A stretch of DNA of 64,000 bases from Candidatus Thorarchaeota archaeon (GCA_019057475.1 DXJO01000010.1:64001-128000), one strand, 5' to 3'. Shown: positions 14,106 to 33,057, counted from the first letter of the stretch. Numbers and translations are program-made. Notes: generated from the sequence alone by a model not told the origin.

Positions 14106-15998
14106 TCACTCGTCAGGAATCTCCATTCCACTGGCTTCTTCTACCAAACCAAGACGTTGCAGTGTAGATGCATACGGGATACCAGTTTCGTTGTCCCACC
14201 CACGCTTCAGATAGTACTCGTCCAACATCTGGTCCAGCTCAACTACTTCCCCCTTGGATGGTCCAAGAGGCGCACCCTCTTTTGTCAGTCTGTCAGGAAG
14301 ACAGTCATCAGCTCGTGTCACGCCACGTCTTGCATTGAATAGACGGTTCAGGTTTACGATACGCTCCCCTATGGTCTGCAGGTCTGCTCTTGTGAACTCG
14401 AACCCATTGTGAACCTTCAGTGCAAGTGCTACATCCTCATAGTAGAACTCAGGAGGGATTTGCGTTCCATACTTGCACAATCCTAGGCTCTCGACGACAA
14501 CCATGAAGTCCTCACACTCTTTCACCATTATTCCCTTGTACTTAGGATTCAGACGTTCTGCCATCTCAGGGAGATACTCCTCTCCGAAGCGCTCCCTTAT
14601 CTCATCATCAAAGCCGGCCTCATCTAGGACAGGGAATGCGTAGAGATGGTCCGCCCCCCTTGCCGCGGTGACTGCAGCAAGCCCCATGGACTTCTGAGCG
14701 CGCGGTTCTTGCCCTGCAATCTCTTGCTTTTTCACTGTCATCACAAACTTCTCGGTGCCTCGACCTATTTTCTCTGCGGCTCGTGCACTTCCTTCAGCAA
14801 GAACATCACCAAATCCCTCTCTGAAGGCAATCATCTTGATGAGCTTGACAATGGACTCATGATTGCCCCACGAAAGGTCGATTCCATCTGTATCATCTGC
14901 CGTGAGTAGGCCCTCATCCCATGCCTCCATGGCCCAAGAGATGGTGCCACCCAAGGATATCGTGTCCATTCCGTACTGATTGGCCAAATGATGACCAAAG
15001 AGGACTGACTCCAAGTTATCATTGCCACAACGGGAGCCCAGTGATGATTGAGTCTCAAACTCTGGCGACCCGCCTACGTATTTGTACGGGCCTTCTTTGA
15101 CGGAGGTATAGCGTGCACACCTTTGCAAGCAGCACCAGTCTGACCTTGGTTTCACAAGATACTTCTCGGTGATTGTTTCGCCGCTTATCTTCTCATATCC
15201 CTCAAAGACCCCTTGACGCATGTTGTAGCTTGGCAGTCTCCCTATATGCTGCATCATCTCAACAAGATTAGTTGTTCCGTACTTCGCCCTTCCCGGAGTA
15301 AAGGGATTTGCCAGCATGCGACGATAGAATTCATCCATAGTATCCATGTACTTCTTGGGGTCTGCAACCTCAATCTTTCCCGCACCTCGCACACATATGG
15401 CCTTCAGCTTCTTTGAGCCCATCACCGCGCCAAGTCCAGAACGAGCGGAGGCACGGTCTCTATCATTCATCACTGCCGCAAAGCGGACAAGGTTCTCGCC
15501 TGCTTGCCCGATATAGATCAATCTGGCTCGCTTGCCGTGTCGCTTCCGCAGTATGTCATCGGTCTCAAACACATCTCGGCCCCAGACATCATCAGCACTT
15601 AGGAGTTCCACAGTCGAGTCATTGATGTTCAAGTAGACTGGGTCTGGCGATGCTCCAGTGAAGAAAATGGCATCATAGCCTGCCAGCTTGAGTTCGGGTC
15701 CCCAGAACCCTGCCGCATGACTCTCTCCCCATACATCAGTGAGAGGCGAGAGAGCTGCAACAACGTGTCGTGATGACTGCGGGAACATTGATGCTGTGAG
15801 CAATCCTGTGGCAAAGCCTAGGACATTCTCTGGTGAGAGTGGATCAATGTCAGTCGGAATGGAGTCAAAGAGAACCTTTGAGAGATACCCCGCGCCAAGA
15901 AGGTACTTCTCTACAAGTTTCTTCTCAATAGGCCTCTTCTCAATCTCTCCTTTTGTTAGGTCCACCCAAATGACTTTACCACCTACTCCGTGAATCAT
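14106..15998 (-). CDS. Tungsten-containing aldehyde:ferredoxin oxidoreductase family protein (AOR-1)
   Basis: SPLT..WGES..AG.WGPELK.AGYD, RSGLGAVMGSKKLKAI, PEFET, GMDTIS, RGADH, YY..RGWD..G.P. Confidence 0.96.
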   Translation of the reverse strand: MIHGVGGKVIWVDLTKGEIEKRPIEKKLVEKYLLGAGYLSKVLFDSIPTDIDPLSPENVLGFATGLLTASMFPQSSRHVVAALSPLTDVWGESHAAGFWGPELKLAGYDAIFFTGASPDPVYLNINDSTVELLSADDVWGRDVFETDDILRKRHGKRARLIYIGQAGENLVRFAAVMNDRDRASARSGLGAVMGSKKLKAICVRGAGKIEVADPKKYMDTMDEFYRRMLANPFTPGRAKYGTTNLVEMMQHIGRLPSYNMRQGVFEGYEKISGETITEKYLVKPRSDWCCLQRCARYTSVKEGPYKYVGGSPEFETQSSLGSRCGNDNLESVLFGHHLANQYGMDTISLGGTISWAMEAWDEGLLTADDTDGIDLSWGNHESIVKLIKMIAFREGFGDVLAEGSARAAEKIGRGTEKFVMTVKKQEIAGQEPRAQKSMGLAAVTAARGADHLYAFPVLDEAGFDDEIRERFGEEYLPEMAERLNPKYKGIMVKECEDFMVVVESLGLCKYGTQIPPEFYYEDVALALKVHNGFEFTRADLQTIGERIVNLNRLFNARRGVTRADDCLPDRLTKEGAPLGPSKGEVVELDQMLDEYYLKRGWDNETGIPYASTLQRLGLVEEASGMEIPDE

Positions 15999-16486
15999 TG
16001 CAAATCCTCCTTTGAGTAGAGTTCCTCGCTATGTTCATCATGCAGTGCCCATATCTCGCCGTCGGGGTCTCTCTCTTCGAGTTCCCTCATTGTGGTCATC
16101 CATATGGCATCAACCGGACAGCGCTTGATGCACTCATCACACTGAATGCATTTGATAGCCTTCTCTGTGTCAGGATTAATCCGGATTGCATTGTACGGAC
16201 ATGCTTCGACACAGGAGCCGGAGCCAGTGCATTTCTTGTTGTTGACAATCACAATGCCCTTCGAGGTGCGCGATAGGGCTTCCTCCGGGCACGCATCAAT
16301 GCAGGGAGCATCTTCGCAGTTTCTGCAGAAGAGGGTGAAATCTAAGCCTGGTTCAATGCGCACAGCTCTTACTCGAGACCGCTCTGGGCTTATCACCTTG
16401 AGGTAGCGCATGCTACACACATTGACACATATCATACAACCAGTGCATACTCGTGGATCTCCAATTACGAACTTCAAGTCGACCAT
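15995..16486 (-). CDS. Fe-S subunit associated with AOR-1
   Basis: Four ferredoxin-type Cys groups (one reads CTGSGSC); ATGA-coupled to AOR-1. Confidence 0.92.
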   Translation of the reverse strand: MVDLKFVIGDPRVCTGCMICVNVCSMRYLKVISPERSRVRAVRIEPGLDFTLFCRNCEDAPCIDACPEEALSRTSKGIVIVNNKKCTGSGSCVEACPYNAIRINPDTEKAIKCIQCDECIKRCPVDAIWMTTMRELEERDPDGEIWALHDEHSEELYSKEDLQ

Positions 16487-16489
16487 ATG

Positions 16490-17854
16490 CTACACCTCAA
16501 AGGGCTTGTTTCCTTCTCCCATCGCCAAGAACCGCCCGTGGCCTGGCTTCACTGTTGTTCGATCCTCATGAAATACTTGAGTCCCTCTCACGAAGGTCAT
16601 GGTTGGCACTCCCTTCATTTCCATTCCCTCGTAGAGTGTCCAGCCACACTTTGAAAACATCATGTCTGAGGTTATCTTCTCCTCTTTCGTGACATCTACG
16701 ATGACGAAGTCTGCATCAGACCCGACCTGTAGTATCCCCTTCTTTGGATACAGGCCGAATATCTTTGCAGGCTTTCGAGAGGTCACATCGAGCAGCCTTG
16801 AGAACGAGAGCCTGCCTCTATTGATTCCCTCTGAGAGGAGAATTCTGAGTATCATTTGGATCCCATCCGCTCCTGCCCAGGCTTCCCTGATATCATCATT
16901 TCCTGCCTCCTTCTTCTCAATAGGACACGGGGCATGATCGCTGACCGTCATATCGATGATTCCACGGAGAAGCGCCGACCAAAGCGCGGCTCGGTCAACT
17001 TTCGACCTCAGTGGCGGGTTCATCTTACTCTTGGGACCCAGTATATTCATCTCATCGCGCTGGAATACTAGGTGATGTGGACACACTTCGGTTGTGACCT
17101 TCACGCCTCCCAGCTTTCCACGTTCAACTTCACTTATGCCCTCTCGCGTGGTGATATGCGCAACGTGCAGATGGCCTCCTGTCTGGTGAGCAATCCCAAC
17201 CACCTGGCGTACAGCAAGACTCTCTGCAATGTTAGGTCTGGACAATGCATGACTCACTGGGGCATCCCGGTCCCCTTCTAGGTCTCTACCAAACTCATCC
17301 AAGATCCCTTGGTCTTCAGAGTGCACTGTGATGTGACCGCCATGCTCAGAGACCTCACTGAGGAGACGGACAATCACTCCTGCATTGGTTTCATATGGTT
17401 CACACGTGAATGCCTTGAACCCAGCGATTCCCTTCCCAATCATCAGAGGGACGATTGGTACATTTTCGGAGTTCATCATTCCAGCATAGAATGAGAAATC
17501 TATGATGGACATGGACTCGCCTTGACAGATTTTTTCCTCCACAGTTTTAACTAAATCGACTTGGCTTGTGAGAGGCATGTCTATGACCGTAGTGACACCG
17601 CCAGCTGCAGCAGCTCTAGAGCCAGTGGTGAAGTCTTCATGGTCAAGCATCTTAGGGTCGTGCAGGTGGGCATGTCCATCTATCAGCCCAGGCATCAAGA
17701 CTTTTCCTTCGGCATCTATGACTGTGTCAGCGTTTGGAAGATGCTCGTCGGTTGCTATGGCACAAATCTTGCCACCATTGACGCCAAGTCCCCCTCGTAT
17801 GAGGCCTGACTCAAGAAGCAATCTTGCATTTTTGACAACAAGATCCACAGGCAC
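16490..17854 (-). CDS. Cyclic amidohydrolase (allantoinase/dihydropyrimidinase/dihydroorotase family)
   Basis: DGHAH, EDF.TGSRAAAAGGVTT..DMP, carboxy-Lys GFKAF, VHSED, HVAH, NPPLR, SDHAP. Confidence 0.93.
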   Translation of the reverse strand: MPVDLVVKNARLLLESGLIRGGLGVNGGKICAIATDEHLPNADTVIDAEGKVLMPGLIDGHAHLHDPKMLDHEDFTTGSRAAAAGGVTTVIDMPLTSQVDLVKTVEEKICQGESMSIIDFSFYAGMMNSENVPIVPLMIGKGIAGFKAFTCEPYETNAGVIVRLLSEVSEHGGHITVHSEDQGILDEFGRDLEGDRDAPVSHALSRPNIAESLAVRQVVGIAHQTGGHLHVAHITTREGISEVERGKLGGVKVTTEVCPHHLVFQRDEMNILGPKSKMNPPLRSKVDRAALWSALLRGIIDMTVSDHAPCPIEKKEAGNDDIREAWAGADGIQMILRILLSEGINRGRLSFSRLLDVTSRKPAKIFGLYPKKGILQVGSDADFVIVDVTKEEKITSDMMFSKCGWTLYEGMEMKGVPTMTFVRGTQVFHEDRTTVKPGHGRFLAMGEGNKPFEV

Positions 17855-17897
17855 TTCTTGTTCTCATCTCCAAATCTGATTGTGAAGCCGCGCCAAG

Positions 17898-18179
17898 TTA
17901 ACCGCCACCCACAGGTGGGAACAGGGCGACAGCATCATTGTCGGCCAGCTCCGTTTCATATCTATCAAGCAGCTCGATTCGCTTGCCATTCACCATGCAC
18001 GAGAAGAACTTTTTGAGCTCATCCGTCTTAGGGTCGATGACCACATCTATGAACGGTTTTCCAAACTGCTTCTTGAGTTTGTCCAGCAGCTCTCGTACAT
18101 TCTTCGCATCCATCTCCATGCTCCTCATACCAGTAATCTCACGAACAGTGGCGAAGAACTTCACAGTAACCGTTGCCAA
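17898..18179 (-). CDS. MoaD/ThiS/SAMP ubiquitin-like sulfur carrier
   Basis: VKFFATVRE..G start and FPPVGGG di-glycine C-terminus. Confidence 0.93.
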   Translation of the reverse strand: MATVTVKFFATVREITGMRSMEMDAKNVRELLDKLKKQFGKPFIDVVIDPKTDELKKFFSCMVNGKRIELLDRYETELADNDAVALFPPVGGG

Positions 18180-18273
18180 AGGTAGTCACCTAACACCGAA
18201 CTCTGGAACCAAGAGATTAAAACACTTTCACTCTGACACTACGTCTCGCGATTCCAAATGGAGTGTTGCACGA

Positions 18274-19158
18274 GTGGATATAGTCGTAGTTGGTCACCTC
18301 AGCAGAGACCTCTTAGTCACGCCGGAAACTACGAGAGAGATCTTGGGTGGGGGAACTGCATACGCTATGCTGGCACCATCTCTTGGCATATCGAAGTGTG
18401 GGATAGTTAGCTGTATTGGCGATGACTTCGAACAGGCGTACATGAGGACTCTTGTGAAGTCAGGTCTTGACGTGACTGGTGTTGATCGAGGGGGACAGCA
18501 TACAACACGATTCGTCAATCAATATGACTCCAACGGTGTTAGGACACAACGCGTCGAAGCAATCGCGGCACCAATCAGGAAGAACGCACTCTTGGAACAC
18601 CATCTCCAGAGCCGGGCTATCCACTTCTGTCCTCTTATTGGAGAGATAGATATCTCGTGCATAAAGGCCGCGAAGGAGGCGGGTGTCTTAGTTTCACTGG
18701 ACCCCCAAGGGTTTCTGCGCACCGTGCAGGGTGACCGGGTGGTTCCGAAGGAATGGACTGACCGCGCTGCTGTTCTAGAGCACGTTGATGTTCTGAAGCT
18801 CGACGAGGATGAGCTCCAGAGTGCCGTGGGCATTGCCACTGAACTCGATGCAGTAGGCAAGATTCTCAACGAAGGGCCTGAGATTGTGATTGTGACAAGG
18901 GATAGACGAGGATCGACAATCTACACTCAGGAGGACAAGATTGACATCCCGCTAATCTTGGCGGATCAGCTTGTTGACGCCACTGGTTCAGGTGACACCT
19001 ATGCCGTCGGTTTCCTAATTGAGTATGCCAGGAATGAGAACCTGAGGCAAGCTGGAGTGTTCGGTGCCTCATGTGCCTCGTTCAATCTTGAAACCATGGG
19101 GCCCTATGAGATGCCTACTAGGGGACAGGTGGAATCTCGAATTAAGTCGTACGTATAG
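18274..19158 (+). CDS. PfkB/ribokinase-family kinase
   Basis: GG..Y N-terminal motif, VSLDPQG, VDATGSGDTY signature; start set at GTG 18274 because the upstream extension overlaps MoaD. Confidence 0.9.
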   Translation: MDIVVVGHLSRDLLVTPETTREILGGGTAYAMLAPSLGISKCGIVSCIGDDFEQAYMRTLVKSGLDVTGVDRGGQHTTRFVNQYDSNGVRTQRVEAIAAPIRKNALLEHHLQSRAIHFCPLIGEIDISCIKAAKEAGVLVSLDPQGFLRTVQGDRVVPKEWTDRAAVLEHVDVLKLDEDELQSAVGIATELDAVGKILNEGPEIVIVTRDRRGSTIYTQEDKIDIPLILADQLVDATGSGDTYAVGFLIEYARNENLRQAGVFGASCASFNLETMGPYEMPTRGQVESRIKSYV

Positions 19159-19210
19159 CTGACGGAAGAAGGCTTTTCACATACCTAAATGGCATCTGAG
19201 CAAGACTGGA

Positions 19211-20404
19211 GTGACAACGGTGCTTGAAGATCTAGACGCTCTGATGGATGTAAATGAAATTGATGCTCTCCTCGTTGTTGGCAATGTATTCGAGGTGCCA
19301 GATATCTACTGGCTCACAGGATTCAGGTCTCCGGATACTATCACCTACTTTCACAGTAAGGGCAACAAACCCGTTGGGATAGCTGGATTCAACACAATCA
19401 AACGAATTAAGACACAGAGTTTTCTAAAGAGAACGTACGACATCTCTGAACTCCTTCTGAAGTTCAGGAAGGCAGGAAAGAGGGCAGCCGATCGTCCTGA
19501 CATCGTGTACGGGACAATCCTTCAGGAACACTTCACTGGCAAAATTCTGGGAGTTCCTAATCATCTTCCAGCTCGGATACTTGTGGCTATCCAGAAGCTT
19601 GGATACACTGTCAAAGTGGTTCCAGACCTGCTCAAGGATGCACGTGCCACCAAGTCGAAGGCTGAGATCAAGACTATCAAGAAGGCAGGAGATGCTACAA
19701 TCAGCGCGATTGAGCGAATTGCTAAGATGATTAAGAAGTCCAAGGTGGGACCAAAGAAGCAGCTCCTCTTGAAGAGTAATCCTCTGACCGTGCAGGACAT
19801 TAAGCTCGCTCTTGAGCACTTCTTGCTGGACAGAGGGGCCGAGTCAGCAGAGGACGCGATTGCCGCTGTGGGCAAGAAAGGCTTCGATTGGCACTATCTC
19901 GGAGCTCCAAAAGATGTGCTCAAGGCTGGAGTTCCCATAATCCTTGATGTCTTTCCTAGACTGAAGCAGGAGAGGTATGTGGCAGACGTCACTCGCACTG
20001 TAGTCAAGGGGCAGCCGCATAAGAACGTGCACGCAATGTTCGAGGCGGTCATTGCCGCTTCAGATGCAGTCGTTGATGCGCTCACTGATGATGCGCCCAT
20101 TGATGAAGTAAACATGGCTTGTTATCAAACATTGAAAAAGCACGGGTTTGATTCAACTAGGCTGAATCCTGAAGCTGTCGAGGGAATGACGCACGGTCTA
20201 GGTCATGGGATTGGCTTGGAAGTTCACGAGAATCCAAGCTTCTATGATCGGGAGGGGGGGTTCGTTGCGGGTCATGTTGTAGCGATTGAACCCGGTGTCT
20301 ACCTGAAGGCTCATGGTGGCGTCAGAATCGAGAATGACTATGCAGTCACCACGCGAAAGCCTAAACGATTGACCATTGGACTCGACGACATCATGTACTT
20401 GTAG
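19211..20404 (+). CDS. Xaa-Pro aminopeptidase (M24B)
   Basis: DVFPR, ADVTRT, HGLGHGIGLEVHE, IEPGVY, GVRIEND. Confidence 0.95.
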   Translation: MTTVLEDLDALMDVNEIDALLVVGNVFEVPDIYWLTGFRSPDTITYFHSKGNKPVGIAGFNTIKRIKTQSFLKRTYDISELLLKFRKAGKRAADRPDIVYGTILQEHFTGKILGVPNHLPARILVAIQKLGYTVKVVPDLLKDARATKSKAEIKTIKKAGDATISAIERIAKMIKKSKVGPKKQLLLKSNPLTVQDIKLALEHFLLDRGAESAEDAIAAVGKKGFDWHYLGAPKDVLKAGVPIILDVFPRLKQERYVADVTRTVVKGQPHKNVHAMFEAVIAASDAVVDALTDDAPIDEVNMACYQTLKKHGFDSTRLNPEAVEGMTHGLGHGIGLEVHENPSFYDREGGFVAGHVVAIEPGVYLKAHGGVRIENDYAVTTRKPKRLTIGLDDIMYL

Positions 20405-20420
20405 CATATCGCCCATTCAG

Positions 20421-21515
20421 TCAGTTGTAGCTCAGGGCGTCATGCGGACAGACCGAGATACACATACCACAAGCTTGACATCTTGATTTGTCGAAGCGCA
20501 GTTCCTGTCCTTCCTTATCAGTTGATATTGCTTCATAGACACAGGACTTCTCACAGAGTCCACAGAGTGTGCATTTCTCCATGTCTACCTTTGGAGGTGG
20601 CGTGAAAACGATTTTCTTTGTGAGGTGCTTAAGCCCCAACCCTCGCACGTCTTCTACCGAGTCATAGCCATGAGCATCCAGCCACTTGTCCATCTCAGAT
20701 GCAATGCGGCCATACACAGTCTGCCCCTCTAGGATTGCAGCTGTGCATACCTCGACAGCATGAGCTCCGGCCATGATGAATTCTATCGCGTCTTCTCCGT
20801 CGCTAACTCCTCCCACACCGATCACAGGCTTTCGGATTGCCCGGGCGATGTCTGCCACACACCGTATTGCTACTGGTTTTATTGATGCACCACTAAGCCA
20901 ACCGTAGCCCGATTCACTCCCCAGCATGGGTTTACCGGTTTCTATGTCAATTCTGAGACATGGTCCCAGTGAGTTTATCGCGACCACTCCATCGACGTAA
21001 GGTTCCACTGACTTGGCTACTTCGACAACATCTACCTTCGGACTAAGCTTCGCAAAGATGGGTATCTCAACAGCCTCACGCAACGCCTTTGCAATTTCGA
21101 CATGCCCACCAACATAATGGGTACTGAATTCCAGTGCATGGACTCCCGCCTTCTCAATCTTCGGCGCGAGGCCAGCAACGTCTTCCGGAGTGTATCCTAG
21201 ACTAGCAATCACAGGAAGACCAGTGTCCAATGCGATTTTGTATTCCTTGTCAAGCCACTGTTCAATCGGCAGCTCGCTCCATAGTTCTGCGTTGAGGATG
21301 CCCCGTCTTGAGCCTGCTCTTCCTTTGCGAACTGCAACAATGTTCGGGGTGGGCACTTTTGCAGCGCTCACGCTTACAGTCTTTGCAACGAGTCCGCCTG
21401 CGCCACCTTTTGCAGCCACGAGAAGAGTATCGCCGTCACGCGCTCCAGGGCCAGCAGCAGTAAGAACGGGATTCCTAAGAGTGAAACTTGTGACTTCGAC
21501 ACTGAGGTCAGCCAT
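20421..21515 (-). CDS. PreA/dihydropyrimidine dehydrogenase-like FMN barrel with C-terminal 2x[4Fe-4S]
   Basis: AAGP, AKT, NAELWS, AKLSP, INS, GWLSG, IGVGGV, two ferredoxin motifs; catalytic loop reads EFSTHY. Confidence 0.88.
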   Translation of the reverse strand: MADLSVEVTSFTLRNPVLTAAGPGARDGDTLLVAAKGGAGGLVAKTVSVSAAKVPTPNIVAVRKGRAGSRRGILNAELWSELPIEQWLDKEYKIALDTGLPVIASLGYTPEDVAGLAPKIEKAGVHALEFSTHYVGGHVEIAKALREAVEIPIFAKLSPKVDVVEVAKSVEPYVDGVVAINSLGPCLRIDIETGKPMLGSESGYGWLSGASIKPVAIRCVADIARAIRKPVIGVGGVSDGEDAIEFIMAGAHAVEVCTAAILEGQTVYGRIASEMDKWLDAHGYDSVEDVRGLGLKHLTKKIVFTPPPKVDMEKCTLCGLCEKSCVYEAISTDKEGQELRFDKSRCQACGMCISVCPHDALSYN

Positions 21516-21516
21516 T

Positions 21517-23454
21517 TTATTTTCCTCTAGCAAGCATCTTTCTCTTCGCTAGGTCGTCAGCAACATAATCGAGACCAAGCTCTTGAAGCTTCTCTCTCTT
21601 CGGAAATCCTGTTTCCCTGTCACAACCCCTGAAATCGTAGTACTCGTCCAGCATCTCGTCTAGGTCGGGAAGTCCACCCTTCGCTGGGCCTGTGGGCATG
21701 GGCTCCTTGAGCAGCCTTTGAGGTAAGTTCTCTTGCTTTCGCGTGATTCCTAGTCTGTGGTTATACGCGCGCCTCAGATGGCTAATCCTCTCAGCCGCCT
21801 GCTTTACGTATTTCGTGTCGGACCATTCAGTCATCCCCGTCAGCGGCGAGATAACATTCACAAACGTATCATAGTAGTAAATTGGCGGCCACATCGTGGA
21901 ATACTTGCAAATGACTGCAGAGTCAACTAACGCGTATAGGTCCTCAATGTCCTTGATAATCTCACCCTTATGTTTTGGTGACATTATGTCCAGTATTTCA
22001 TCGGCTTTCTCCGCACCGAATCTCTCACTCACAATATCCGGATAGCCCAGTTCTTCAAGACTGGATAGACTCCTGAGATGGTCTGCTCCTCTCACATTAG
22101 TGGCGTAGGTGAGACCTACCGACTGGTGCGCTCTCGGATCTTGTCCTGAAGCCTCAAGCCCTTTCACATGCACCGCGTATTTCCAAGCGTCCCCGCCAAT
22201 AATCTCAGCTGCTTTCCTCACGCCCTTGGAAAGCATGTCACCTATCCCCTCGCGTTTGCCAATCATCTCAACGAGCTTGACCATGGAGTCCACATTACCC
22301 CACGAGAGGTCGAGTCCATCGGTGTCCTTCTTTGTTAGAATGCCTTTCTCCCAAAGCTCCATTGCAAAGCCTATGGTCTTGCCGCATGAAATCGTATCCA
22401 TCCCAATCAGGTCACACCTTGTACCCATATGGAATATGGACTCGACATCATTATTCAGACAATTGGAACCAAATGCCATGAGTGTTTCGTATTCTGGCCC
22501 TCCTGCCGGCCCTCCTCCGAATGCGCCTTCCTTCACCTTGTATATGTATTTGCATCCAATTGCGCATCCGTGACATGCCTCCTGAGTGGTTCGGTAATTC
22601 TCAGCAATTGTTTCAGGCCCGATATCATCAGCCTGCTCGTAGAACCCTGTCCAGTGATTTTTCGTAGGCAGTCTGCCTATCTCGTTGATGATGGCAACAA
22701 GGTCAGTTGTGCCGTACTTCCTCAAAGAAGCCAATGATGCAGTCCAGAGTGGGTCGTTTAGCTTGGCCATTTCCTCAGCATTGGCCTCTAGGTACTTGTC
22801 CATATCATGGACCTCAAGGCCAAGCGAACCCCTGCACGCAATGCCCTTCACATTCTTGGAACCCAAAACTGCTCCAATGCCACAACGGCCTGCGGCACGA
22901 TAAACATCTACTATAACGCTGGCATACGATACCAACTTTTCTCCTGCTGTTCCAATTACAGCGGTTTCGACAGCGGGGTCTTTGTGCTCCTCTCGAATCA
23001 TCTGAGTGGTGATATCGGTTTCGCGTCCCCAAAGATCGGAAGCATCAAGAAGTTCAGCATGTCCGTCACGGAGGAAGAGGTACACATGCTTCGGTGACCT
23101 GCCACGAATCACCACGAAGTCAAAACCTGCGTACTTCATCTCTGGTCCAAAGAATCCACCTACATGGCTTTCAGCCCAGACGCCTGTGAGTGGCCCCTTT
23201 GCCGCGAACATCATTCGTCCTGACGGTGAGAACATAGAACCTGTGAGTGGCCCAGTACCTATGACAACCACGTTGTCCGGTGAGAGCGGATCTGTGTCTG
23301 GTCCGGTCGAGTCCCATAGTATCCTTGCTGCGACACCTGAGCCCCCCAAGTACAGTCGCGCCCATTCCTTCTCCATCTCGCGCTTGTGGATTTTACCCTT
23401 AGTAAGGTCGACATCCAGGTAGTGCCCTGCGTATCCCTTGTATGGAAACGTCAT
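21517..23454 (-). CDS. Tungsten-containing aldehyde:ferredoxin oxidoreductase family protein (AOR-2)
   Basis: GPLTG.WAESH.GG.FGPE.K.AGFD, GRCGIGAVLGSKN, CHGCAIGC, GPEYET, GMDTIS, DPR, RGADH. Confidence 0.96.
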   Translation of the reverse strand: MTFPYKGYAGHYLDVDLTKGKIHKREMEKEWARLYLGGSGVAARILWDSTGPDTDPLSPDNVVVIGTGPLTGSMFSPSGRMMFAAKGPLTGVWAESHVGGFFGPEMKYAGFDFVVIRGRSPKHVYLFLRDGHAELLDASDLWGRETDITTQMIREEHKDPAVETAVIGTAGEKLVSYASVIVDVYRAAGRCGIGAVLGSKNVKGIACRGSLGLEVHDMDKYLEANAEEMAKLNDPLWTASLASLRKYGTTDLVAIINEIGRLPTKNHWTGFYEQADDIGPETIAENYRTTQEACHGCAIGCKYIYKVKEGAFGGGPAGGPEYETLMAFGSNCLNNDVESIFHMGTRCDLIGMDTISCGKTIGFAMELWEKGILTKKDTDGLDLSWGNVDSMVKLVEMIGKREGIGDMLSKGVRKAAEIIGGDAWKYAVHVKGLEASGQDPRAHQSVGLTYATNVRGADHLRSLSSLEELGYPDIVSERFGAEKADEILDIMSPKHKGEIIKDIEDLYALVDSAVICKYSTMWPPIYYYDTFVNVISPLTGMTEWSDTKYVKQAAERISHLRRAYNHRLGITRKQENLPQRLLKEPMPTGPAKGGLPDLDEMLDEYYDFRGCDRETGFPKREKLQELGLDYVADDLAKRKMLARGK

Positions 23455-23456
23455 CT

Positions 23457-23969
23457 CTACGCATCCACCTCCGAGAGGCCGTACGCTGTTCTTAGGTTCC
23501 GAACGCTATCACTTCGGCCCCGAAGTCCATGGCTGTCAGTTGATTGCAATGATATGGCCTGATACGTGCATGCGTCGATGCAGGCGGGTTCTCCTCCACA
23601 GAGGTCACACTTGATTGCCTTCCTAAGAAGAGGGTCTATCGCGATGCCCCCATAGATGCAGGCAGTTACACAGTTGGAGCATCCAATGCATAGGTCGTGA
23701 TTAACCGTGAGAACACCAGCGCTGTTCTCAGAGATCGCACCTGTTGGGCAAGCCTCAGCACAGAGCGGCGAATCGCACTGCAAACAGACCATCGGTATGA
23801 CCATCGCCCGAAATTCCTCCTTGAGAATTTGGATTCTTGCACGAGCCGGGTTGAATGTATTTGTGTGGTGTACTGAACAGGCCAGCTCACAGTTTCGGCA
23901 ACCGGTACAGAGATTATTATCTATTGCAAGGGCTTTCCTCAAGTCACTCGAGCTCTCCTTGGTCACCAT
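23457..23969 (-). CDS. Fe-S subunit associated with AOR-2
   Basis: CTGCRNCELAC, CLQC..PLCAEACP, CIGCSNCVTAC, KCDLCGGEPAC. Confidence 0.93.
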   Translation of the reverse strand: MVTKESSSDLRKALAIDNNLCTGCRNCELACSVHHTNTFNPARARIQILKEEFRAMVIPMVCLQCDSPLCAEACPTGAISENSAGVLTVNHDLCIGCSNCVTACIYGGIAIDPLLRKAIKCDLCGGEPACIDACTYQAISLQSTDSHGLRGRSDSVRNLRTAYGLSEVDA

Positions 23970-24080: not shown

Positions 24081-24158
24081 ATGTGGGCCTGCAAATGTCG
24101 GACAGTTAGCTCTTCGATAGCTTTTCTGTTCTCTAGACTCCACTTGTTGGCCTGAATC

Positions 24159-25958
24159 ATGACTCCACAGACCAAGAAACCAACGACTGCATTTCGCTCA
24201 GCGAGAGCAAGAGATCAAGAGATGTTCGATAAGATATCTCTCGCAGTAGTGGAGTTTGACCCTGAGCTAAACGTACTATATGCGAATCCGGCTGCACAGA
24301 ATCTTCTAGGCATGAAACAGTCGGACATTGACACAGGATTGCACGTTTCTGATTTGGTTGTTTCCGAGCAGGTGAAACTTGTTCAGGAGGCTTTCAGACG
24401 CCTTCGGAATGGTGCTGAGCCTACTTCGCTCTCTCTAAGAGCAGTACGCAAAGATGGGATTCAGATTCCCATTGAAGTGTTCGCCGACATGATTCATCAC
24501 CGCGGCAAGCTCAAGGGCTATGTTGTGTACGCAACCGATATGACACGTCGCGCACAAATCGTGGACAAGCTCAGAGAGAAAAGCGCGTTCTTCAAGACCG
24601 CCGTTGAATACTCGCATGTGGGCATATTCCAAGTAGGACACAACTTTAGATTCGAATACATGAATGACAGACTCTGCGATATGGTGGGCCGGACTCGGAG
24701 TGAGCTTCTGGGACACGATTTCCGCGAATTCCTTCACCCCGACAGTGTGGACCTTGTTGCAGACCGTTATGTGAGGCGACAACGTGGGGAAAAGGTACCA
24801 TCGGTATATCAGTTCAAAATCGTCCGGAAGAACGGCACGCCAAGGGATGTAGAGATATCAAGCACCTCCATGATGGGTCGGGATGGTAGGATGAACACCA
24901 TCGGCCAGATTCTGGACATCACAGAGGAAGTGGAGAGCAAACAAGCTCTTGGGGAGAGCGAACGTAGATACCGTGATCTTGTAGAAACCATGGATGACGG
25001 GTTGGCCACAGATGACGAGATCGGAGTGATTACCTACGTCAATGACGCTTTCTGCAAGATGTTAGGTTATACTCGTGATGAGATAGTTGGCCTTTCAGGA
25101 TACGAGATTTTTCACAGTATCACTCAGAACGGCTATGGCAACAAATCCATCGCCCGTGCGGAGGGGATCACCGAGCACTATGAGGCTGAATTGCTCGCCA
25201 AGAATGGTACAACAGTGCCGGTCATGGTTTCCGCTTGCCCACTCCCAACAGAGAGTGGGGATTACAAGGGAAGTTTCGCGTTATTCACTGACATTTCCGA
25301 ACTCAAGAGTGTTGAGGCCGAAGCGCGCTTCCTACTTGATTTGATACTTCATGACATAGGCAACCAGTTGCAGTTGGTTCTTGCCGGTGCCGACCTTGCC
25401 AACAAGGAGTCGTCCCCCGAAGTCATTGAGACTGCCCAACAATACATCCTAGATGGTGCACACCGTTGTATTGAGCTGATTCACAAGGTACGAAGTGCAG
25501 AGGAGTCAAAGGTTGAGCCTCTCAGGCCAATGGACTTGATTGAAGTGGTGGTTGGCGAGGCGCTTTTGCTTGCACGACAGCATGGCGTTACTCCTAAGAT
25601 GAAGAATCTGCCAGAAACATTGATGGTTAATGCTGATAGTGCCCTGAGTCAGCTTGTATGGAACCTCATGGAGAATGCAACAAAACATAACAGGAATCCT
25701 AAGAAGAGAATATGGATCAACGGACGGAGGGTGAGAGGGAACAAGTTCAAGATTACTATTGCTGACAACGGGCCAGGTCTGAGTGATTCGAAGAAAATTC
25801 AGGTATTCAGCTCAGAACGGAGATTCGGTGGGGTGGGTCTTCATCTTGTGCGACGTCTGATCAAGAAGTATGGCGCCATGCTTGAAATCAAGGACCGTGT
25901 GCGGGGCAGGCCAGGCAAAGGTCTCAAGGTTATAATCACGTTTGATATTCTCAAATAG
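24159..25958 (+). CDS. Soluble PAS-PAS-PAS sensor histidine kinase
   Basis: Three PAS/PAC repeats; H-box LHDIGNQL, N-box NLMENATKH, DNGPG, GGVGL; no TM segment. Confidence 0.93.
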   Translation: MTPQTKKPTTAFRSARARDQEMFDKISLAVVEFDPELNVLYANPAAQNLLGMKQSDIDTGLHVSDLVVSEQVKLVQEAFRRLRNGAEPTSLSLRAVRKDGIQIPIEVFADMIHHRGKLKGYVVYATDMTRRAQIVDKLREKSAFFKTAVEYSHVGIFQVGHNFRFEYMNDRLCDMVGRTRSELLGHDFREFLHPDSVDLVADRYVRRQRGEKVPSVYQFKIVRKNGTPRDVEISSTSMMGRDGRMNTIGQILDITEEVESKQALGESERRYRDLVETMDDGLATDDEIGVITYVNDAFCKMLGYTRDEIVGLSGYEIFHSITQNGYGNKSIARAEGITEHYEAELLAKNGTTVPVMVSACPLPTESGDYKGSFALFTDISELKSVEAEARFLLDLILHDIGNQLQLVLAGADLANKESSPEVIETAQQYILDGAHRCIELIHKVRSAEESKVEPLRPMDLIEVVVGEALLLARQHGVTPKMKNLPETLMVNADSALSQLVWNLMENATKHNRNPKKRIWINGRRVRGNKFKITIADNGPGLSDSKKIQVFSSERRFGGVGLHLVRRLIKKYGAMLEIKDRVRGRPGKGLKVIITFDILK

Positions 25959-26050
25959 GCTCGTAATCTGAACTCTCTTCTAGCGCTCTTTGCACCGCAA
26001 TCGTTATCTCTCACGCAGATGAGTTATCATGTTGCATCGGAGGTCATAGG

Positions 26051-27448
26051 ATGAAATCCGCTAAGTCACTCCTTGTCAAGAACGGCTACATTCTCACAAT
26101 GAATCCCCGCAGGGAGATAATCCGAGATGGGACCGTGTACATCGAAGGTCAGAAGATTATAGAAGTGGGCAAGAGTGAAGCACTGAAGAGTCGAAAGGCG
26201 GAGGTTGAGATAGACGCCCGGAATATGATCGTGATGCCTGGGCTCATTGACACCCATGTTCATCTCGCTCAAGCGCTGATTCGGGGGTGTGCCGATGATG
26301 TCGCATTGGTTGATTGGTTGAAGAACTACGTCTGGGTGTTGCAGGGGAATTTCACACATGACGATGGCAGGGTGTCAGCAGAGCTCTGTATGGCCGAGAT
26401 GATAAAGACGGGCACTACCGCTTTCGTTGAGTGCATGATTCATACTCGGTACGGTTTCGATGGCATTGCGAAAGCGGTGGAACAGGCGGGAATGAGAGGT
26501 GCGCTTTCAAAGATAATCATGGACTCCACTGGATATGCCGATAGCCCCGACATCATGTATCCTGGAATGGTCGAAGATGCTGATGCCTGCTTGAAGGAAA
26601 CAGAAACTATGCTGGCGCGCTGGCATGGAAAAGCCGACGGACGGATTCAGGTGTGGTACGGACTACGATCTCTTGGTGCTGTTAGCGAAGAGCTGTTCAA
26701 GGATGTGGGAAGACGTACTAGGTCCCACAAGACGCAAATGACAATGCATCTGGGTGAGGTGCCCGACGATGTCAGATACGTCCGGCAGAACCACGATATG
26801 AGCCTCACAGAGTTTGCTGAGACGCAGGGGCTTCTGGGACCAGAGATGATATTCGCTCACGGGATTCATTTCGAGGAATCTGATCTCAAGCGGCTAGCTG
26901 AAACACGCTCCAACGTGAGTCACTGTCCTGCAAGCAACACGAAGCTGGCTTCAGGGTTTGCCAGGATTCCTCGCATGCTGGAACTTGGTGTACCTGTTTC
27001 ACTAGGTTGTGACGGCGGACCAAGTAATAACACGTATGACATGATTCGTGAGATGCGCCTTGCAGCACTAATCCATAAGCCAATTGCTAACGACCCGTTG
27101 GTTGTCAGTGCTGAAGAAGTCATTGAGATGGCAACTCTCGGTGGTGCAGTTGCTATGGGTATCTCCGATACTGTCGGCTCTCTGGAACCCGGTAAACATG
27201 CAGATCTGATTCTTGTGGACATGAGCGATTTGGGGCTCACTCCAAACACCAATCCTGTTTCCAATCTCGTCTATGCAGGGTCTGGTCATGCGGTAGATAC
27301 AGTAGTCGTGAATGGCAGACTGCTGATGAGAAACCGGGAACTACTGACCATGGATGAAACCGAGGTGAAGAAGAAGGCTCTTAGACATAGCAAGGATCTC
27401 ATAGAGCGAGCTGGCGTGGATATCAGTCCCAAGTGGCCTGTTCTCTAG
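26051..27448 (+). CDS. Amidohydrolase of the ATZ/TRZ, SsnA and nucleoside/nucleobase deaminase group
   Basis: DTHVHLAQ, MHLGE, AHGIH, HCPASN.KL.SG, LGCDG.PSNN. Confidence 0.92.
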   Translation: MKSAKSLLVKNGYILTMNPRREIIRDGTVYIEGQKIIEVGKSEALKSRKAEVEIDARNMIVMPGLIDTHVHLAQALIRGCADDVALVDWLKNYVWVLQGNFTHDDGRVSAELCMAEMIKTGTTAFVECMIHTRYGFDGIAKAVEQAGMRGALSKIIMDSTGYADSPDIMYPGMVEDADACLKETETMLARWHGKADGRIQVWYGLRSLGAVSEELFKDVGRRTRSHKTQMTMHLGEVPDDVRYVRQNHDMSLTEFAETQGLLGPEMIFAHGIHFEESDLKRLAETRSNVSHCPASNTKLASGFARIPRMLELGVPVSLGCDGGPSNNTYDMIREMRLAALIHKPIANDPLVVSAEEVIEMATLGGAVAMGISDTVGSLEPGKHADLILVDMSDLGLTPNTNPVSNLVYAGSGHAVDTVVVNGRLLMRNRELLTMDETEVKKKALRHSKDLIERAGVDISPKWPVL

Positions 27449-27459
27449 TAGTGATGGGC

Positions 27460-29055
27460 TTAGCTGAAGCCAGTGAGTGCCCAGTTGATGTGGTATACGG
27501 ACATAGCGTCCCTACCACAGATGATGTTATCATCGAGATCGACCCTATAGAGCGTGGTTAATGCGCCCCCGATATAACTCCCGAAGACCCAGAACCAGTC
27601 ATCGAAGAACACGATGTAGTCGCATCCCCTGTCGTACATGTATTGCAATGTTTCCCGTGTTGTCATGTTTCCGTGAACAATGTCGGGTGTGACCAGACCT
27701 ATTATGTCGATGACAGCCCTGTTCCCAAAGAACCTGACTGCTCCTGCATCGCAGATTGCCAAGACCGCATCCTCAGGAGTATTCTCCGCAATCCACTCGC
27801 CGATGGTCACCTGCATGTCATTGATGTTTTTCACAGCATTTCCAAAGGTCTGAGCCTGATGCGCGTAGAGCGGCTGCATGGGGACAATTAGGACTCCTAT
27901 GATGAAAATTACAGTCATAAACCTAGCACTCGTCTTGATGTCGGCATACTTCTTCAAACTCAGTGCCCATTCCAACATGAATGCGGTGCTCGTGATTGCG
28001 ACGACCAAGAATAGTGCGTGGGCGGGAATCAGATATCTAGTGTTGTTCACTAGGGACTGATACGGCATTGTAAACCTATAGAGGAGGGTCAGTGACCATG
28101 CTACAAGCCAAGGAAACGGCTTCCCTTTGATGGCAAGTACCAGACCGCTCCCGAATGCCACCCAGAGAAATGGCCATGAGCGCAGCCAATACCACCACCA
28201 TATATTCCAAGCCTCTACCCCAGCTTCGGTAGGAAGATGCACCTTCACGTAGAAAGTGTCTGGAAGTGGATATCCGGTGGCATTCAGGCAGTACAGTATC
28301 CACGGGAGAACAACTGCCAGAGAGATTGCACCCATGAGAAGGAATGAGCCCAGTCTTCGCCAGGATAGTTCGCGATGCCAAACCACCATCAGAAATCGCA
28401 CAGGAACGCAGATCAGCACAAGGATAACTCCCTCGGGTCTTGCCAGGTATGCCAGACCCAGAATGATACCAAGAATTGGATCGTACTTGATGTCCTTCTT
28501 ATCAAGAACGAAGACAGCGAGAACTAGCAGGAAGACGAAGATGGGCGCCTCCATGCCCGATAGCATAAGCCAAGTGTTGCCAGGTACTAGCACGAACCCT
28601 CCCATTGCCAAAAGGCTCCAAACCGGCTGGCCGGCGTAGTCTTGTGCAATCTTACCAACAACAAACGTGGAGGTAGCGTACAAGACTATCGCAATTACGT
28701 ACGTTCCCCAGATGATGTAGACTGGGTCATCTGTCAGAAAGAATAAGCTGGAGAGGATTATCGACCACAAGGGGCTCGTGGAACCAGTACTTGGGACGCC
28801 AGGCGAGTACTGCCAAGGGATACCCTCGTAGATGGTCCTTGCGTATTGAATGTGAATCCACGAGTCATCTAAAGGGAAACCGGGGTAGGTCCAGAGTTGC
28901 ATTGTAGAGATGTAGTGAATGCAAGTTGCCAACGTGACGAGGATTGAGAACATCAAGAGTCCTAGGTCGAGCTTGTGGACAGCAACCCAGTCCATGAACG
29001 CAGCTCGAACTCTCAGGACGAGTGCATTCCCGTTGGAATCCGGACTCTCCTCCAC
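27460..29055 (-). CDS. Multi-TM GT-C-type (arabinofuranosyltransferase-like) membrane protein
   Basis: DDSWIH..YAR...G..STGSTSPLW, SGME, LARPEG and DAGAV..F motifs. Confidence 0.7.
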   Translation of the reverse strand: MEESPDSNGNALVLRVRAAFMDWVAVHKLDLGLLMFSILVTLATCIHYISTMQLWTYPGFPLDDSWIHIQYARTIYEGIPWQYSPGVPSTGSTSPLWSIILSSLFFLTDDPVYIIWGTYVIAIVLYATSTFVVGKIAQDYAGQPVWSLLAMGGFVLVPGNTWLMLSGMEAPIFVFLLVLAVFVLDKKDIKYDPILGIILGLAYLARPEGVILVLICVPVRFLMVVWHRELSWRRLGSFLLMGAISLAVVLPWILYCLNATGYPLPDTFYVKVHLPTEAGVEAWNIWWWYWLRSWPFLWVAFGSGLVLAIKGKPFPWLVAWSLTLLYRFTMPYQSLVNNTRYLIPAHALFLVVAITSTAFMLEWALSLKKYADIKTSARFMTVIFIIGVLIVPMQPLYAHQAQTFGNAVKNINDMQVTIGEWIAENTPEDAVLAICDAGAVRFFGNRAVIDIIGLVTPDIVHGNMTTRETLQYMYDRGCDYIVFFDDWFWVFGSYIGGALTTLYRVDLDDNIICGRDAMSVYHINWALTGFS

Positions 29056-29136
29056 GCTACATCCTCCTAAGCTGATGCAGGCTCGGCAGTATCACCAAAT
29101 TAGTCTTTTGAACCTCACAATGGACGGTCCACATGC

Positions 29137-31127: not shown

Positions 31128-31152
31128 GATTTGCGCATTCCTGTTCTGGTTG

Positions 31153-31920
31153 TTATTTAATGTGGTCTATCTTTGGAAAGGGCGGTTCCCCTTTCAGATC
31201 CAGCATGAACTTGTGGGCTCTATCGATGTTCTTGTCCTCTCCCTCTATGAAGAGAGTGATGCTACCTTCCGCACCATTGACGCCTCCCGCAGCGAAGGGG
31301 ATAGCTGAAACATCGAATAGCGCATCAATGGCCTCCATCTCGGTGAAGGCTATGCCCTCTGGCACTGCTATAACGCCAACTGGCGTTCCAATGGCGTAGT
31401 CCCAATCGTCTTTTCCGAATTGGCCAGCGAAATCATCATAGGCGACGGGGATGTTCTTCTCGAGACCTATCGGCATAATTATCGTGATATTCTTTGAAGC
31501 CGCAGTGCCGAGGAAGGAACCGACTGTTCCTCCGGTTGGACTTGCCAGGAGAACGACCGGAGTGTAGTCTGCATCTAAGGCATTTGCGCTCTTGATAATC
31601 ACGTCGTCTGGTCCCAACTCCTCTAGGACATCAATGATCTTCTTGCCTTTGAGATGCTTCCCCTTGTGAAAGATTGCGTCGGAAGATCTGCTCTCAGCTT
31701 CGGTTACTGACAATCCCTGAGGCAAAACCACACCAGCTATGTGTCGTGTCTTGTCGTATTCTCCTAGTATCTCTTCCACGAGATAGGAGGAGGTTGTACC
31801 CAGAGTCACGCAGAGGTAACCGTTCTTCAGGGCTTCCTTAACCGTATCTGTGGCAAGGAGGCCTCTCGCGATTAGCCTCTTACTCTCGGCCGGTGTCAGT
31901 GTCACAAGCAGCTTCTTCAT
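31153..31920 (-). CDS. Conserved hypothetical protein (TLTPAESKRLIA family)
   Basis: Start set at ATG 31920 after GAGGAG; GTT, IKSANALD, GGT.G, PIGLEK, AGG..GAEG motifs. Confidence 0.75.
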   Translation of the reverse strand: MKKLLVTLTPAESKRLIARGLLATDTVKEALKNGYLCVTLGTTSSYLVEEILGEYDKTRHIAGVVLPQGLSVTEAESRSSDAIFHKGKHLKGKKIIDVLEELGPDDVIIKSANALDADYTPVVLLASPTGGTVGSFLGTAASKNITIIMPIGLEKNIPVAYDDFAGQFGKDDWDYAIGTPVGVIAVPEGIAFTEMEAIDALFDVSAIPFAAGGVNGAEGSITLFIEGEDKNIDRAHKFMLDLKGEPPFPKIDHIK

Positions 31921-32064
31921 CGTATCAATCTCCTCGTTATTCTCGTGATGCTGTCCATTTGAATTTGTAGGCTCCGATTTTCTCCAGATATGGTTATCTT
32001 TTTGCACACGGTTCTTGGCGCGCTTCCACGAAGCCTTTTACGAGGAAGCTACATTCCTAGCACG

Positions 32065-33057
32065 ATGCCCATGGCAGGAACAAGCCTCTTTGACTTGGGA
32101 GCTACAGGCGTGGAGAGAATCCTCGAGACCGCACAATCAGTTCTAGAAACCGGTTTCTCTACGATTGTGAAGCACATGCATACGCTCCGCGTAGTGGGGA
32201 CCTTCCTGCACAATGCTCCGTCCTACGAACGGACAGTAGCCCAAGCAACCGCAGCTCGGCTTTATTCTTCTCATATCGACCTGAACATCCACAGAGAATA
32301 CGCCCTGTCTGATTATGAGCTTCTGAGTGAGATTACCATGGCCAGCTCTGCCACGGATCTACTGCTGACATCCTATACGGACCCTCAGGCTTTCGGTGAT
32401 GGACGGCGGCTCACTGAAAAACTCCCGAGTGTCATAGGCAAGCCCATGATAAGTCTGGCAGACGATATCTATGCCCATCAGTCTGCCCTTGCTGAGCTAG
32501 CCTCCGTCCGATATAATCTCGACCGAATTGAGGGTCGTCGCATCGTCATATGTTGGGGATTTGGCTCAAGGTTCGTCTTGCCTCGGACACCCCATAGCTT
32601 GCTGATTCTGGGTGCTATGCTTGGCGCTGAGATGAGAGTTGCAGCTCCCCCTGGGTTTTCTCTTGTCAGAAGAGCAGTGCGTGAGGCCCGGAAGCGTTCA
32701 AGGACAACGAGCATAGTCATCGAAGAGGTTGACAGCTTCGAGGGCGCTTTCGAAGATGCGGATGCAGTGTTTGCTCTCAACTGGGGTCGACTGGACAACT
32801 TCAATCACCCTGAGCGCAATGCTGAGGACGCCAGTCCATTCAAGGATTGGTTCCTGACTGGAAACATGCTTCCCAAGAACTGTCTGTTTGCTACAGAACC
32901 TCCAGTACAGGATGACCTCATTGCTGGTGGAGAGCTGCTTCAGAGCAATAGGAATGTGACCCCGACCTGGTTGAGCCGAAGAGTCGCAGTGTTGGCAGCA
33001 TCGATTCTGCATGTCCTCCAGAACAGTAAGGCGGACGTTCCGGCCGCTCTCGTATGA
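32065..33057 (+). CDS. Ornithine/YgeW-type carbamoyltransferase homologue with degenerate catalytic motifs
   Basis: GRRIVICW, VAAPPGF.L, F..AFEDADAVFA.NW, KDW layout; STRT, HPxQ and HCLP not conserved; start 32065 or 32071. Confidence 0.78.
   Translation: MPMAGTSLFDLGATGVERILETAQSVLETGFSTIVKHMHTLRVVGTFLHNAPSYERTVAQATAARLYSSHIDLNIHREYALSDYELLSEITMASSATDLLLTSYTDPQAFGDGRRLTEKLPSVIGKPMISLADDIYAHQSALAELASVRYNLDRIEGRRIVICWGFGSRFVLPRTPHSLLILGAMLGAEMRVAAPPGFSLVRRAVREARKRSRTTSIVIEEVDSFEGAFEDADAVFALNWGRLDNFNHPERNAEDASPFKDWFLTGNMLPKNCLFATEPPVQDDLIAGGELLQSNRNVTPTWLSRRVAVLAASILHVLQNSKADVPAALV

Follow-up and report, generated by a model that had tools for sequence, protein, structure and literature searches.

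Which heterocycle is attacked by the products of a gene cluster in Candidatus Thorarchaeota archaeon, and what do two members of the tungsten oxidoreductase/aldehyde oxidoreductase (WOR/AOR) family contribute to it? The question is raised by positions 14,106 to 33,057 of a 64,000-nucleotide stretch of its DNA (GCA_019057475.1, DXJO01000010.1:64001-128000; this whole stretch is called the window), where two such enzymes, AOR-1 and AOR-2, are encoded with a ring reductase and two amidohydrolases. A preliminary description, made from the sequence, had proposed nucleobase catabolism in which the AORs either oxidise an aldehyde such as malonate semialdehyde for the ring reductase or act on N-heterocycles in place of xanthine dehydrogenase (Xdh). 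The comparisons reported here favour the second possibility. The cluster very probably has a purine role, and the locus is probably the redox core of an archaeal form of the reductive uric-acid (2,8-dioxopurine) pathway. The WORs would likely hydroxylate and dehydroxylate purines in place of XDH and DOPDH, a direct ring chemistry that we infer from their sequence relationships and genomic context.

Organization of the cluster

All genes named in the preliminary description lie where it had placed them, including a PAS kinase and a deaminase-like amidohydrolase, and the two tightly coupled minus-strand units that it recognised agree with gene calls and spacing. In the first unit (MoaD, cyclic amidohydrolase, iron-sulfur (Fe-S) protein, AOR-1) the gaps are 43 nt and 3 nt, followed by a 4-nt overlap. 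In the second (Fe-S protein, AOR-2, reductase) they are 2 nt and 1 nt, the true ATG of the reductase being at 21515. The genes of the proposed pathway are (residues in PfAOR numbering):

14106..15998, minus strand: AOR-1, WOR/AOR large subunit, 630 amino acids; Thr243, Glu313 and His448 kept, Gln for Tyr427, Asp for the first [4Fe-4S] Cys; orthologues in Hermodarchaeia, Asgardarchaeum and Korarchaeota
15995..16486, minus strand: polyferredoxin small subunit of AOR-1 (class II WOR layout), overlapping it by 4 nt
16490..17854, minus strand: cyclic amidohydrolase of the allantoinase/hydantoinase type, without the dihydroorotase HxHxR Arg; orthologue in the Korarchaeota operon
17898..18179, minus strand: MoaD/ThiS-like protein (WorX-type, pterin cofactor sulfur carrier), present also in the Hermodarchaeia, Asgardarchaeum and Bathyarchaeia clusters
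20421..21515, minus strand: probable UacX-type FMN/[4Fe-4S] reductase with a dihydroorotate dehydrogenase (DHODH) fold, two Fe-S motifs and no FAD domain; N-x-E-L-W-S and E-F-S-T-H motifs
21517..23454, minus strand: AOR-2, WOR/AOR large subunit, 645 amino acids; Thr243, Glu313, His448 and four Cys kept, Gln for Tyr427; directly upstream of UacX in Thorarchaeota, Hermodarchaeia, Korarchaeota and Bathyarchaeia
23457..23969, minus strand: polyferredoxin small subunit of AOR-2, 2 nt upstream of it
26051..27448, plus strand: GuaD/TRZ-ATZ-type amidohydrolase (deaminase), with orthologues (50-53% identity) in Hermodarchaeia and Bathyarchaeia clusters

The genome (G000) is 96% complete; its other contigs are cited as C3, C7, C18, C29, C34, C38, C46, C48 and C56.

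The reductase is most likely of the UacX type

The reductase had been described as PreA-like. It is one of three DHODH-fold genes in the genome, the others being a pyrD on C18 and a preA on C46. Where the products of these two carry the catalytic loop N-x-S-C-P, the window protein has E-F-S-T-H, with N-A-E-L-W-S upstream. The N-x-[SG]-C-P loop of PreA is thus missing and the protein scores 176 bits against the PreA model (cut-off 335), so that it is not PreA. Similar N-x-E-L-W-S and S-T-H motifs occur in E. coli YgfK, by a weak profile match only (E 9e-10).

In C. difficile, the place of YgfK is taken by UacX, a PF01180 protein with no FAD domain, which together with SsnA converts 2,8-dioxopurine to ureidomethyl-hydantoin (Li et al., PMC12507026). 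The window protein has the layout by which UacX was defined, PF01180 plus an Fe-S domain and no FAD domain (PMC12507026), and is 47-51% identical to clostridial proteins of canonical uricolytic clusters. Because of this identity and the missing Cys loop, it is most likely UacX, the 2,8-dioxopurine reductase, C. difficile UacX (Q181U4) being compared by its published description. Both UacX and clostridial PydA lack an FAD subunit (PMC12507026), so that the missing preT needs no special explanation.

The nearest relatives of the reductase are from Ca. Thorarchaeota (92-95% identity), and a protein search returned matches almost only from Thorarchaeota. A close homologue is present in 10 of 201 Clostridia genomes. 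All nine Clostridia loci examined (39-49% BLAST identity) carry SsnA and Xdh-family genes alongside, no AOR, and the S-T-H motif; most also hold HyuA, YgeY, YgeX or a urate transporter. They include a Peptostreptococcaceae genome, whose reductase is 47% identical to that of the window. The same context with SsnA and Xdh-family genes, and the same motif, are found in a Mesoaciditogaceae bin and in the archaeon UBA186.

Pyrimidine genes lie elsewhere in the genome

The first possibility of the preliminary description was reductive pyrimidine breakdown by a PreA-like reductase and a dihydropyrimidinase, with an AOR acting on malonate semialdehyde. As in that pathway (PreA/PydA, PydB, PydC), a DHODH-fold reductase with C-terminal Fe-S clusters accompanies a cyclic amidohydrolase, which gives dihydropyrimidinase-like matches. 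However, besides the missing Cys loop and the low PreA score, the amidohydrolase reaches only 316 bits against the dihydropyrimidinase model (cut-off 393), and the real pyrimidine cluster of this genome is on another contig. This complete reductive pyrimidine (Pyd) cluster (G000:C46:29792-36357; L043:5792-12358) encodes a dihydropyrimidinase (484 bits, cut-off 393), a nitrilase-type hydrolase, an aminotransferase, PreA (430 bits, cut-off 335) and its own semialdehyde dehydrogenase; the hydrolase, the aminotransferase and the semialdehyde-dehydrogenase-like gene were named from their sequences. It has no preT and is therefore probably ferredoxin-dependent. The only standalone GltD-like gene of the genome (C7:39774) was rejected as a preT since it follows a PyrK-like gene; we take this pair, from its gene order, to be an NfnAB-like arrangement.

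The biosynthetic genes are also elsewhere: pyrD is followed by a pyrK-like gene on C18, and a separate pyrC with an HVHLRD motif, in which the HxHxR Arg is present, lies on C34. The window genes are therefore not the only pyrD and pyrC of the genome, and their assignment as biosynthetic genes was rejected. With the true preA, hydA and MMSDH, as well as pyrC and pyrD, located outside the locus, the reading with malonate semialdehyde is removed and must be considered very unlikely.

Linkage is conserved in several archaeal lineages

Of the 77 Thorarchaeaceae genomes, 71 encode the reductase. In 19 of 20 Thorarchaeota loci it has AOR-2 as its neighbour; 17 of these 20 loci carry the hydantoinase-FeS-AOR-1 unit and 18 the deaminase. 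In Hermodarchaeia, AOR-2 and the reductase are adjacent in 9/9 loci, 8 of which also carry an SsnA orthologue, the deaminase and two carbamoyltransferases; AOR-2, UacX, SsnA, deaminase, both carbamoyltransferases and AOR-1 are thus gathered in one cluster, and the Thorarchaeota orthologues of its SsnA and carbamoyltransferases are on C29 and C3. In an Asgardarchaeum genome, AOR-2, SsnA, deaminase, reductase, a third WOR (AOR3) and AOR-1 lie within 12 kb. Korarchaeota possess a co-oriented operon, FeS-WOR-UacX-FeS-AOR3-hydantoinase-AOR-1, beside a BMP-type ABC transporter, with SsnA in most cases. Bathyarchaeia-like contigs carry the deaminase, the array FeS-AOR-2-reductase-FeS-MoaD-AOR3, a carbamoyltransferase, a pyridoxal phosphate (PLP) enzyme, a phosphoribosyltransferase and a BMP-type transporter. 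A metagenome scan, which returned mostly generic AORs, served as a control: neither UacX nor SsnA was found at any of 75 loci of AORs outside the clade, many of these loci being short. No member of the WOR clade was recovered in a plasmid search.

Present in at least five archaeal lineages but at none of the control loci, the linkage between AOR and UacX exceeds chance, and the test of conserved linkage set out in the preliminary description came out in its favour. The genome does hold 11 AOR-family genes, and the locus is interrupted by a peptidase and further unrelated genes, as would be expected if generic peptide-aldehyde AORs merely neighboured biosynthetic pyrC/pyrD paralogues. The separate pyrD-pyrK and pyrC genes, together with a linkage kept through different gene orders, largely refute such a chance neighbourhood, which is extremely improbable.

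Two other arrangements were observed. In Aigarchaeota/Nitrososphaeria (L124:6672-13223 and L099), a single clade WOR and its Fe-S subunit are flanked on one side by a BMP-type ABC transporter and on the other by a cytosine-deaminase-like amidohydrolase, with no UacX nearby. Paralogous clusters (L229, L230, L123, L142, L060) combine more divergent reductases, one of them without the S-T-H motif, with other WOR subgroups, which suggests further heterocycle substrates.

WORs occupy the place of the Xdh family

The absence of Xdh-family genes, described previously for the window, extends to the whole genome: PF02738 gave no match, nor did BLAST searches with E. coli XdhA, XdhB, XdhC, XdhD, YgfM, YqeB, YqeC, MocA and YgeX. 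The Xdh-family urate dehydroxylase (XdhD/DOPDH) has no match in this genome or in any of the 77 Thorarchaeaceae genomes. In Heimdallarchaeaceae, the UacX gene is flanked by SsnA, XdhABC and YqeB in 6/6 loci, with no AOR there; in the two complete genomes of this family the cluster further includes XdhD, YgeY, a carbamoyltransferase and a hydantoinase. A survey of 301 Asgard genomes (WOR clade defined by E <= 1e-165 to AOR-2, Xdh family by PF02738) found the WOR clade in 94 and the Xdh family in 60, with no overlap at these cut-offs. The clade is present in 76/77 Thorarchaeaceae, 15/19 Hermodarchaeia and 0/31 Heimdallarchaeaceae, against 0/77, 0/19 and 29/31 for Xdh. Of 57 Thorarchaeaceae, 50 retain an SsnA orthologue. 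Such genomes possess both consumers of 2,8-dioxopurine but not the known enzyme family that produces it, so that this compound must be formed without Xdh.

The cluster WORs form a clade with an altered active site

AOR-1 and AOR-2 have AFOR_N and AFOR_C domains and the AOR fold. In a FastTree phylogeny, both fall with the other cluster WORs in one clade (support 0.975), nearly all members of which have Gln at the Tyr427 site. This tree left out the characterised WORs of the PDB and so gives no placement among the 92 WOR clades. The orthologues of AOR-1 and those of AOR3 each form a well-supported group that spans lineages; the AOR-2 group spans Asgard archaea and Bathyarchaeia, and the Korarchaeota enzyme in the AOR-2 position is a close relative. 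In this genome AOR3 and its Fe-S subunit (G000:C56:524-2990; L048) lie outside the cluster, while in Asgardarchaeum, Korarchaeota and Bathyarchaeia they belong to the purine cluster.

The enzymes share with class II tungsten oxidoreductases (WorLS; PfASOR/WOR5, CbGOR) and with AOR sensu stricto (PfAOR, AaAOR, AmWOR1) the two domains, the fold, the large and small subunits, an adjacent ThiS-like WorX and the residues T243, E313 and H448 (PMC13328260; PMC12096430). They differ in their Gln at Tyr427, their 35-39% identity to solved WORs, the Asp that replaces one cluster Cys in AOR-1 and their purine-catabolism context. Tyr427 is conserved in aldehyde-oxidising AORs, His being the sole substitution noted, and is proposed to position the aldehyde (PMC12096430; PMC13328260). 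The second-shell set of AOR sensu stricto (T243, E313, Y427 or His, H448) is thus incomplete in both AORs and across the clade. The Asp for the first [4Fe-4S] Cys was observed in the AOR-1 orthologues of Thorarchaeota, Hermodarchaeia and Korarchaeota, and possibly adjusts the potential of the cluster. The AlphaFold model of AOR-2 (pLDDT 92) confirms the AOR fold only and does not bear on the substrate.

Aldehyde oxidation and purine hydroxylation are formally the same reaction at an sp2 carbon, and the xanthine-oxidase family performs both. Urate reduction requires low-potential electrons, which suits tungsten and ferredoxin.

The cluster could also degrade purines while its WORs stay aldehyde oxidoreductases, feeding UacX with low-potential electrons via the polyferredoxins or oxidising an aldehyde late in the pathway; 2,8-dioxopurine would then come from outside or from an unrecognised enzyme. 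The three retained residues agree with this, as does the match of the AOR-2 model to aldehyde-oxidising AORs (Foldseek TM 0.88-0.90). Korarchaeota moreover keep Xdh-family genes, and no YgeX orthologue was found in the genome, so that the end of the pathway may differ. However, Thorarchaeaceae and Hermodarchaeia would be left with UacX and SsnA but no substrate-making enzyme, the genome has eight other AORs and the NfnAB-like pair for such tasks, and three old, conserved paralogues with an altered active site would be unexpected for an electron donor. This alternative is possible but unlikely.

Other proposed steps of the pathway

The SsnA orthologue lies outside the window (C29:139478-140806). 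SsnA is its best model (371 bits, cut-off 444) and its grouping with E. coli SsnA has a support of 0.999. The cyclic amidohydrolase carries an HAHLHD motif, which lacks the Arg typical of dihydroorotase (PyrC). It is 30% identical to E. coli HyuA and belongs to a separate lineage, grouping with the enzyme of the Korarchaeota operon; we propose it as the HyuA equivalent, a putative ureidomethyl-hydantoin hydrolase. The window deaminase falls on the GuaD side of the tree and possesses Gln, Arg and HxxE motifs; it is a probable amino-purine deaminase feeding xanthine or urate. Its assignment as SsnA was rejected by both tree and motifs.

A YgeW-like carbamoyltransferase had been described about 5 kb further on. 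An ornithine carbamoyltransferase (OTCase)-like open reading frame (ORF) is indeed present, but degenerate: YgeW models, whose cut-offs are 453-500, give it only 30-35 bits, and the SxRT, HPxQ and HCLP motifs are missing. It was rejected as YgeW and is probably not the carbamoyltransferase of the pathway. It evolves fast (34-45% identity between relatives vs 60-80% for its neighbours) and is syntenic in 9 of 12 regions. In L130, one of the loci L129-L138, it is divergent from a purB-like gene, which is missing at this spot of the window.

Two tandem intact carbamoyltransferases of no named family are encoded on C3 (G000:C3:43027-45216; L046:7028-9217). They are 30-32% identical to YgeW, score below its cut-off and are not knotted YgeW; in Hermodarchaeia they are linked to the purine cluster. 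They could phosphorolyse both ureido groups. A carbamate kinase gene is present on C38. A 488-residue PLP enzyme of the PALP fold (G000:C48:2443-3909; L233) is 58% identical to one in Xdh-type clusters and has homologues in the uricolytic clusters of Heimdallarchaeum, UBA186 and some Clostridia, which makes it a candidate non-orthologous diaminopropionate lyase. The same Xdh-type clusters repeatedly hold a ThrC-like paralogue.

That the WORs hydroxylate N-heterocycles other than standard purines (modified or damaged bases, pterin or imidazole compounds), the route only resembling that of urate, would agree with several of these observations: the hydantoinase and the deaminase form lineages apart from E. 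coli HyuA and GuaD and score under all equivalog cut-offs, neither carbamoyltransferase is a knotted YgeW, and Korarchaeota carry paralogous clusters and Xdh together. Against it, the window reductase shares more identity with clostridial uricolytic proteins (47-49%) than with the Heimdallarchaeaceae copies (36-37%), and the SsnA orthologue groups firmly with that of E. coli. A substrate of this kind appears rather improbable.

A proposed archaeal reductive uric-acid pathway

In the pathway that we propose, the GuaD-like deaminase would convert an amino-purine to xanthine or urate. AOR-1, with the third paralogue AOR3, would hydroxylate hypoxanthine or xanthine towards urate, in an XDH-like role. 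AOR-2 and its polyferredoxin may then remove the C6 oxygen of urate to yield 2,8-dioxopurine (the DOPDH/XdhD role); this step is assigned to AOR-2 only from its position next to the reductase. The UacX-type flavoenzyme would reduce the 2,8-dioxopurine ring with electrons at the ferredoxin level, SsnA would open the ring and the cyclic amidohydrolase the hydantoin. Finally, the C3 carbamoyltransferases and the carbamate kinase would strip the ureido groups, with a gain of ATP.

The bacterial pathway and the activity of UacX have been established by others (PMC12507026). C. sporogenes employs two molybdenum hydroxylases, XDH (hypoxanthine/xanthine to urate) and DOPDH (urate to 2,8-dioxopurine) (bioRxiv 10.1101/2025.04.24.650524), and several WOR paralogues would fit a similar division of labour. 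Compared with the reductive uric-acid pathway (E. coli XdhD-YgfM, YgfK, SsnA, HyuA, YgeW-YqeA, YgeY and YgeX; C. difficile UacX and UacY; C. sporogenes XDH and DOPDH), the archaeal set shares a probable UacX-type reductase without an FAD domain, an SsnA orthologue, a hydantoinase, YgeW-related carbamoyltransferases and a carbamate kinase (PMC12507026; bioRxiv 10.1101/2025.04.24.650524). Unlike the bacterial one, it has no Xdh-family enzyme, YqeB, YqeC or MocA, where three WOR paralogues, polyferredoxins and MoaD are found instead; YgeX and a clear YgeY are also missing, and the Thorarchaeota genes are spread over several contigs.

The second possibility of the preliminary description thus stands in part. 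The UacX-type reductase, the SsnA and carbamoyltransferase neighbours in relatives, the Xdh/WOR swap beside UacX and their mutual exclusion in Asgard genomes support it, while the window deaminase proved GuaD-like, the YgeW-like gene degenerate, and tungsten is assigned as the metal of AOR-1 and AOR-2 by family membership. Several further points weigh against the proposed pathway. The substrates of all characterised WORs are aldehydes, sulfonates or benzoyl-CoA (PMC13328260, PMC12096430). C. difficile UacX was compared by its description, and the SsnA, YgeW and HyuA homologues all score under the NCBIfam cut-offs. A BLAST search of the genome with E. coli YgeX gave no orthologue, and its M20 hydrolases are under the YgeY cut-offs. 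Not every clade member has purine genes nearby, and in Thorarchaeota AOR3 lies by itself. The Asgard pattern of WOR and Xdh rests on few lineage-level events, since related genomes are not independent. Korarchaeota G506 and G511-G514 hold the WOR cluster plus two Xdh-family genes each, while in G515 and G537 the WOR operon occurs without Xdh, and the Asgard genome G004 has Xdh together with a more distant clade WOR beside UacX/SsnA-like genes. Finally, no match to the tungstate-binding proteins TupA, WtpA or ModA was found in this genome; as PF12849, which does not separate TupA from PstS, is present in 27 of 30 relatives, an assembly gap is suggested.

Accessory and neighbouring genes

The remaining genes of the locus are:

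18274..19158, plus strand: PfkB-family kinase, start inferred
19211..20404, plus strand: M24 peptidase, between the two units
24159..25958, plus strand: PAS-domain sensor kinase, missing in some Thorarchaeota (loci L075 and L086)
31990..33057, plus strand: degenerate carbamoyltransferase (OTCase-like) homologue without catalytic motifs, syntenic in Thorarchaeota

The first three are restricted to the Thorarchaeota version of the cluster. The PfkB kinase, which does lie between the units, is possibly a passenger or involved in nucleoside or ribose salvage; the M24 peptidase next to it, overlooked in the preliminary description, is probably a passenger. The PAS kinase is a possible regulator of the locus. 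The coupling of AOR-2 to the reductase, tight here, is not obligatory: many Thorarchaeota have inserts of 0.5-4 kb between them. This gap is an insertion site in Thorarchaeota, occupied in some by two CLC-type channel genes with CBS domains (L007:4631-8422; L004:8179-9962) and elsewhere by unrelated genes.

Downstream of AOR-1 and co-oriented with it, positions 11773-13377 encode an MvhD/FlpD-polyferredoxin fusion and a further Fe-S protein, syntenic in several Thorarchaeota, which are a possible electron sink or source for the cluster. Between the deaminase and ABC-2 genes, positions 27460-29055 encode a 531-residue membrane protein with no Pfam match, found in this genome only among those compared.

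Significance

A literature search combining tungsten with dioxopurine, and Asgard archaea or Thorarchaeota with purine or uric acid, most subscription papers being outside its scope, returned no report of WORs in purine catabolism. The bacterial uric-acid papers do not mention archaea (PMC12507026; bioRxiv 10.1101/2025.04.24.650524), nor do WOR reviews mention purines (PMC13328260; PMC12096430), and a physiological role has been defined for only 5 of 92 WOR clades (PMC13328260). The bacterial form of the pathway is known (gut bacteria, 2025); its conserved, WOR-bearing archaeal version is a new variant.

On balance, an old clade of the tungsten family, with three conserved paralogues in Asgard archaea, Korarchaeota and Bathyarchaeia, is likely to carry out both hydroxylation and dehydroxylation of the purine ring. 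If this is true, heteroaromatic C-H hydroxylation and C-O reduction would be a new reaction type for the WOR family, convergent with the xanthine-oxidase fold. To date, only the unrelated molybdenum xanthine-oxidase family is known to act on purines in this way. The prediction can be put to a direct test with three named enzymes and substrates that are sold commercially. If it holds, it would extend the urate pathway described from gut bacteria in 2025 to archaea as a selenium-free, ferredoxin-linked purine fermentation, and would give abundant sediment Asgard lineages a route from nucleic-acid purines to carbon, nitrogen and ATP.

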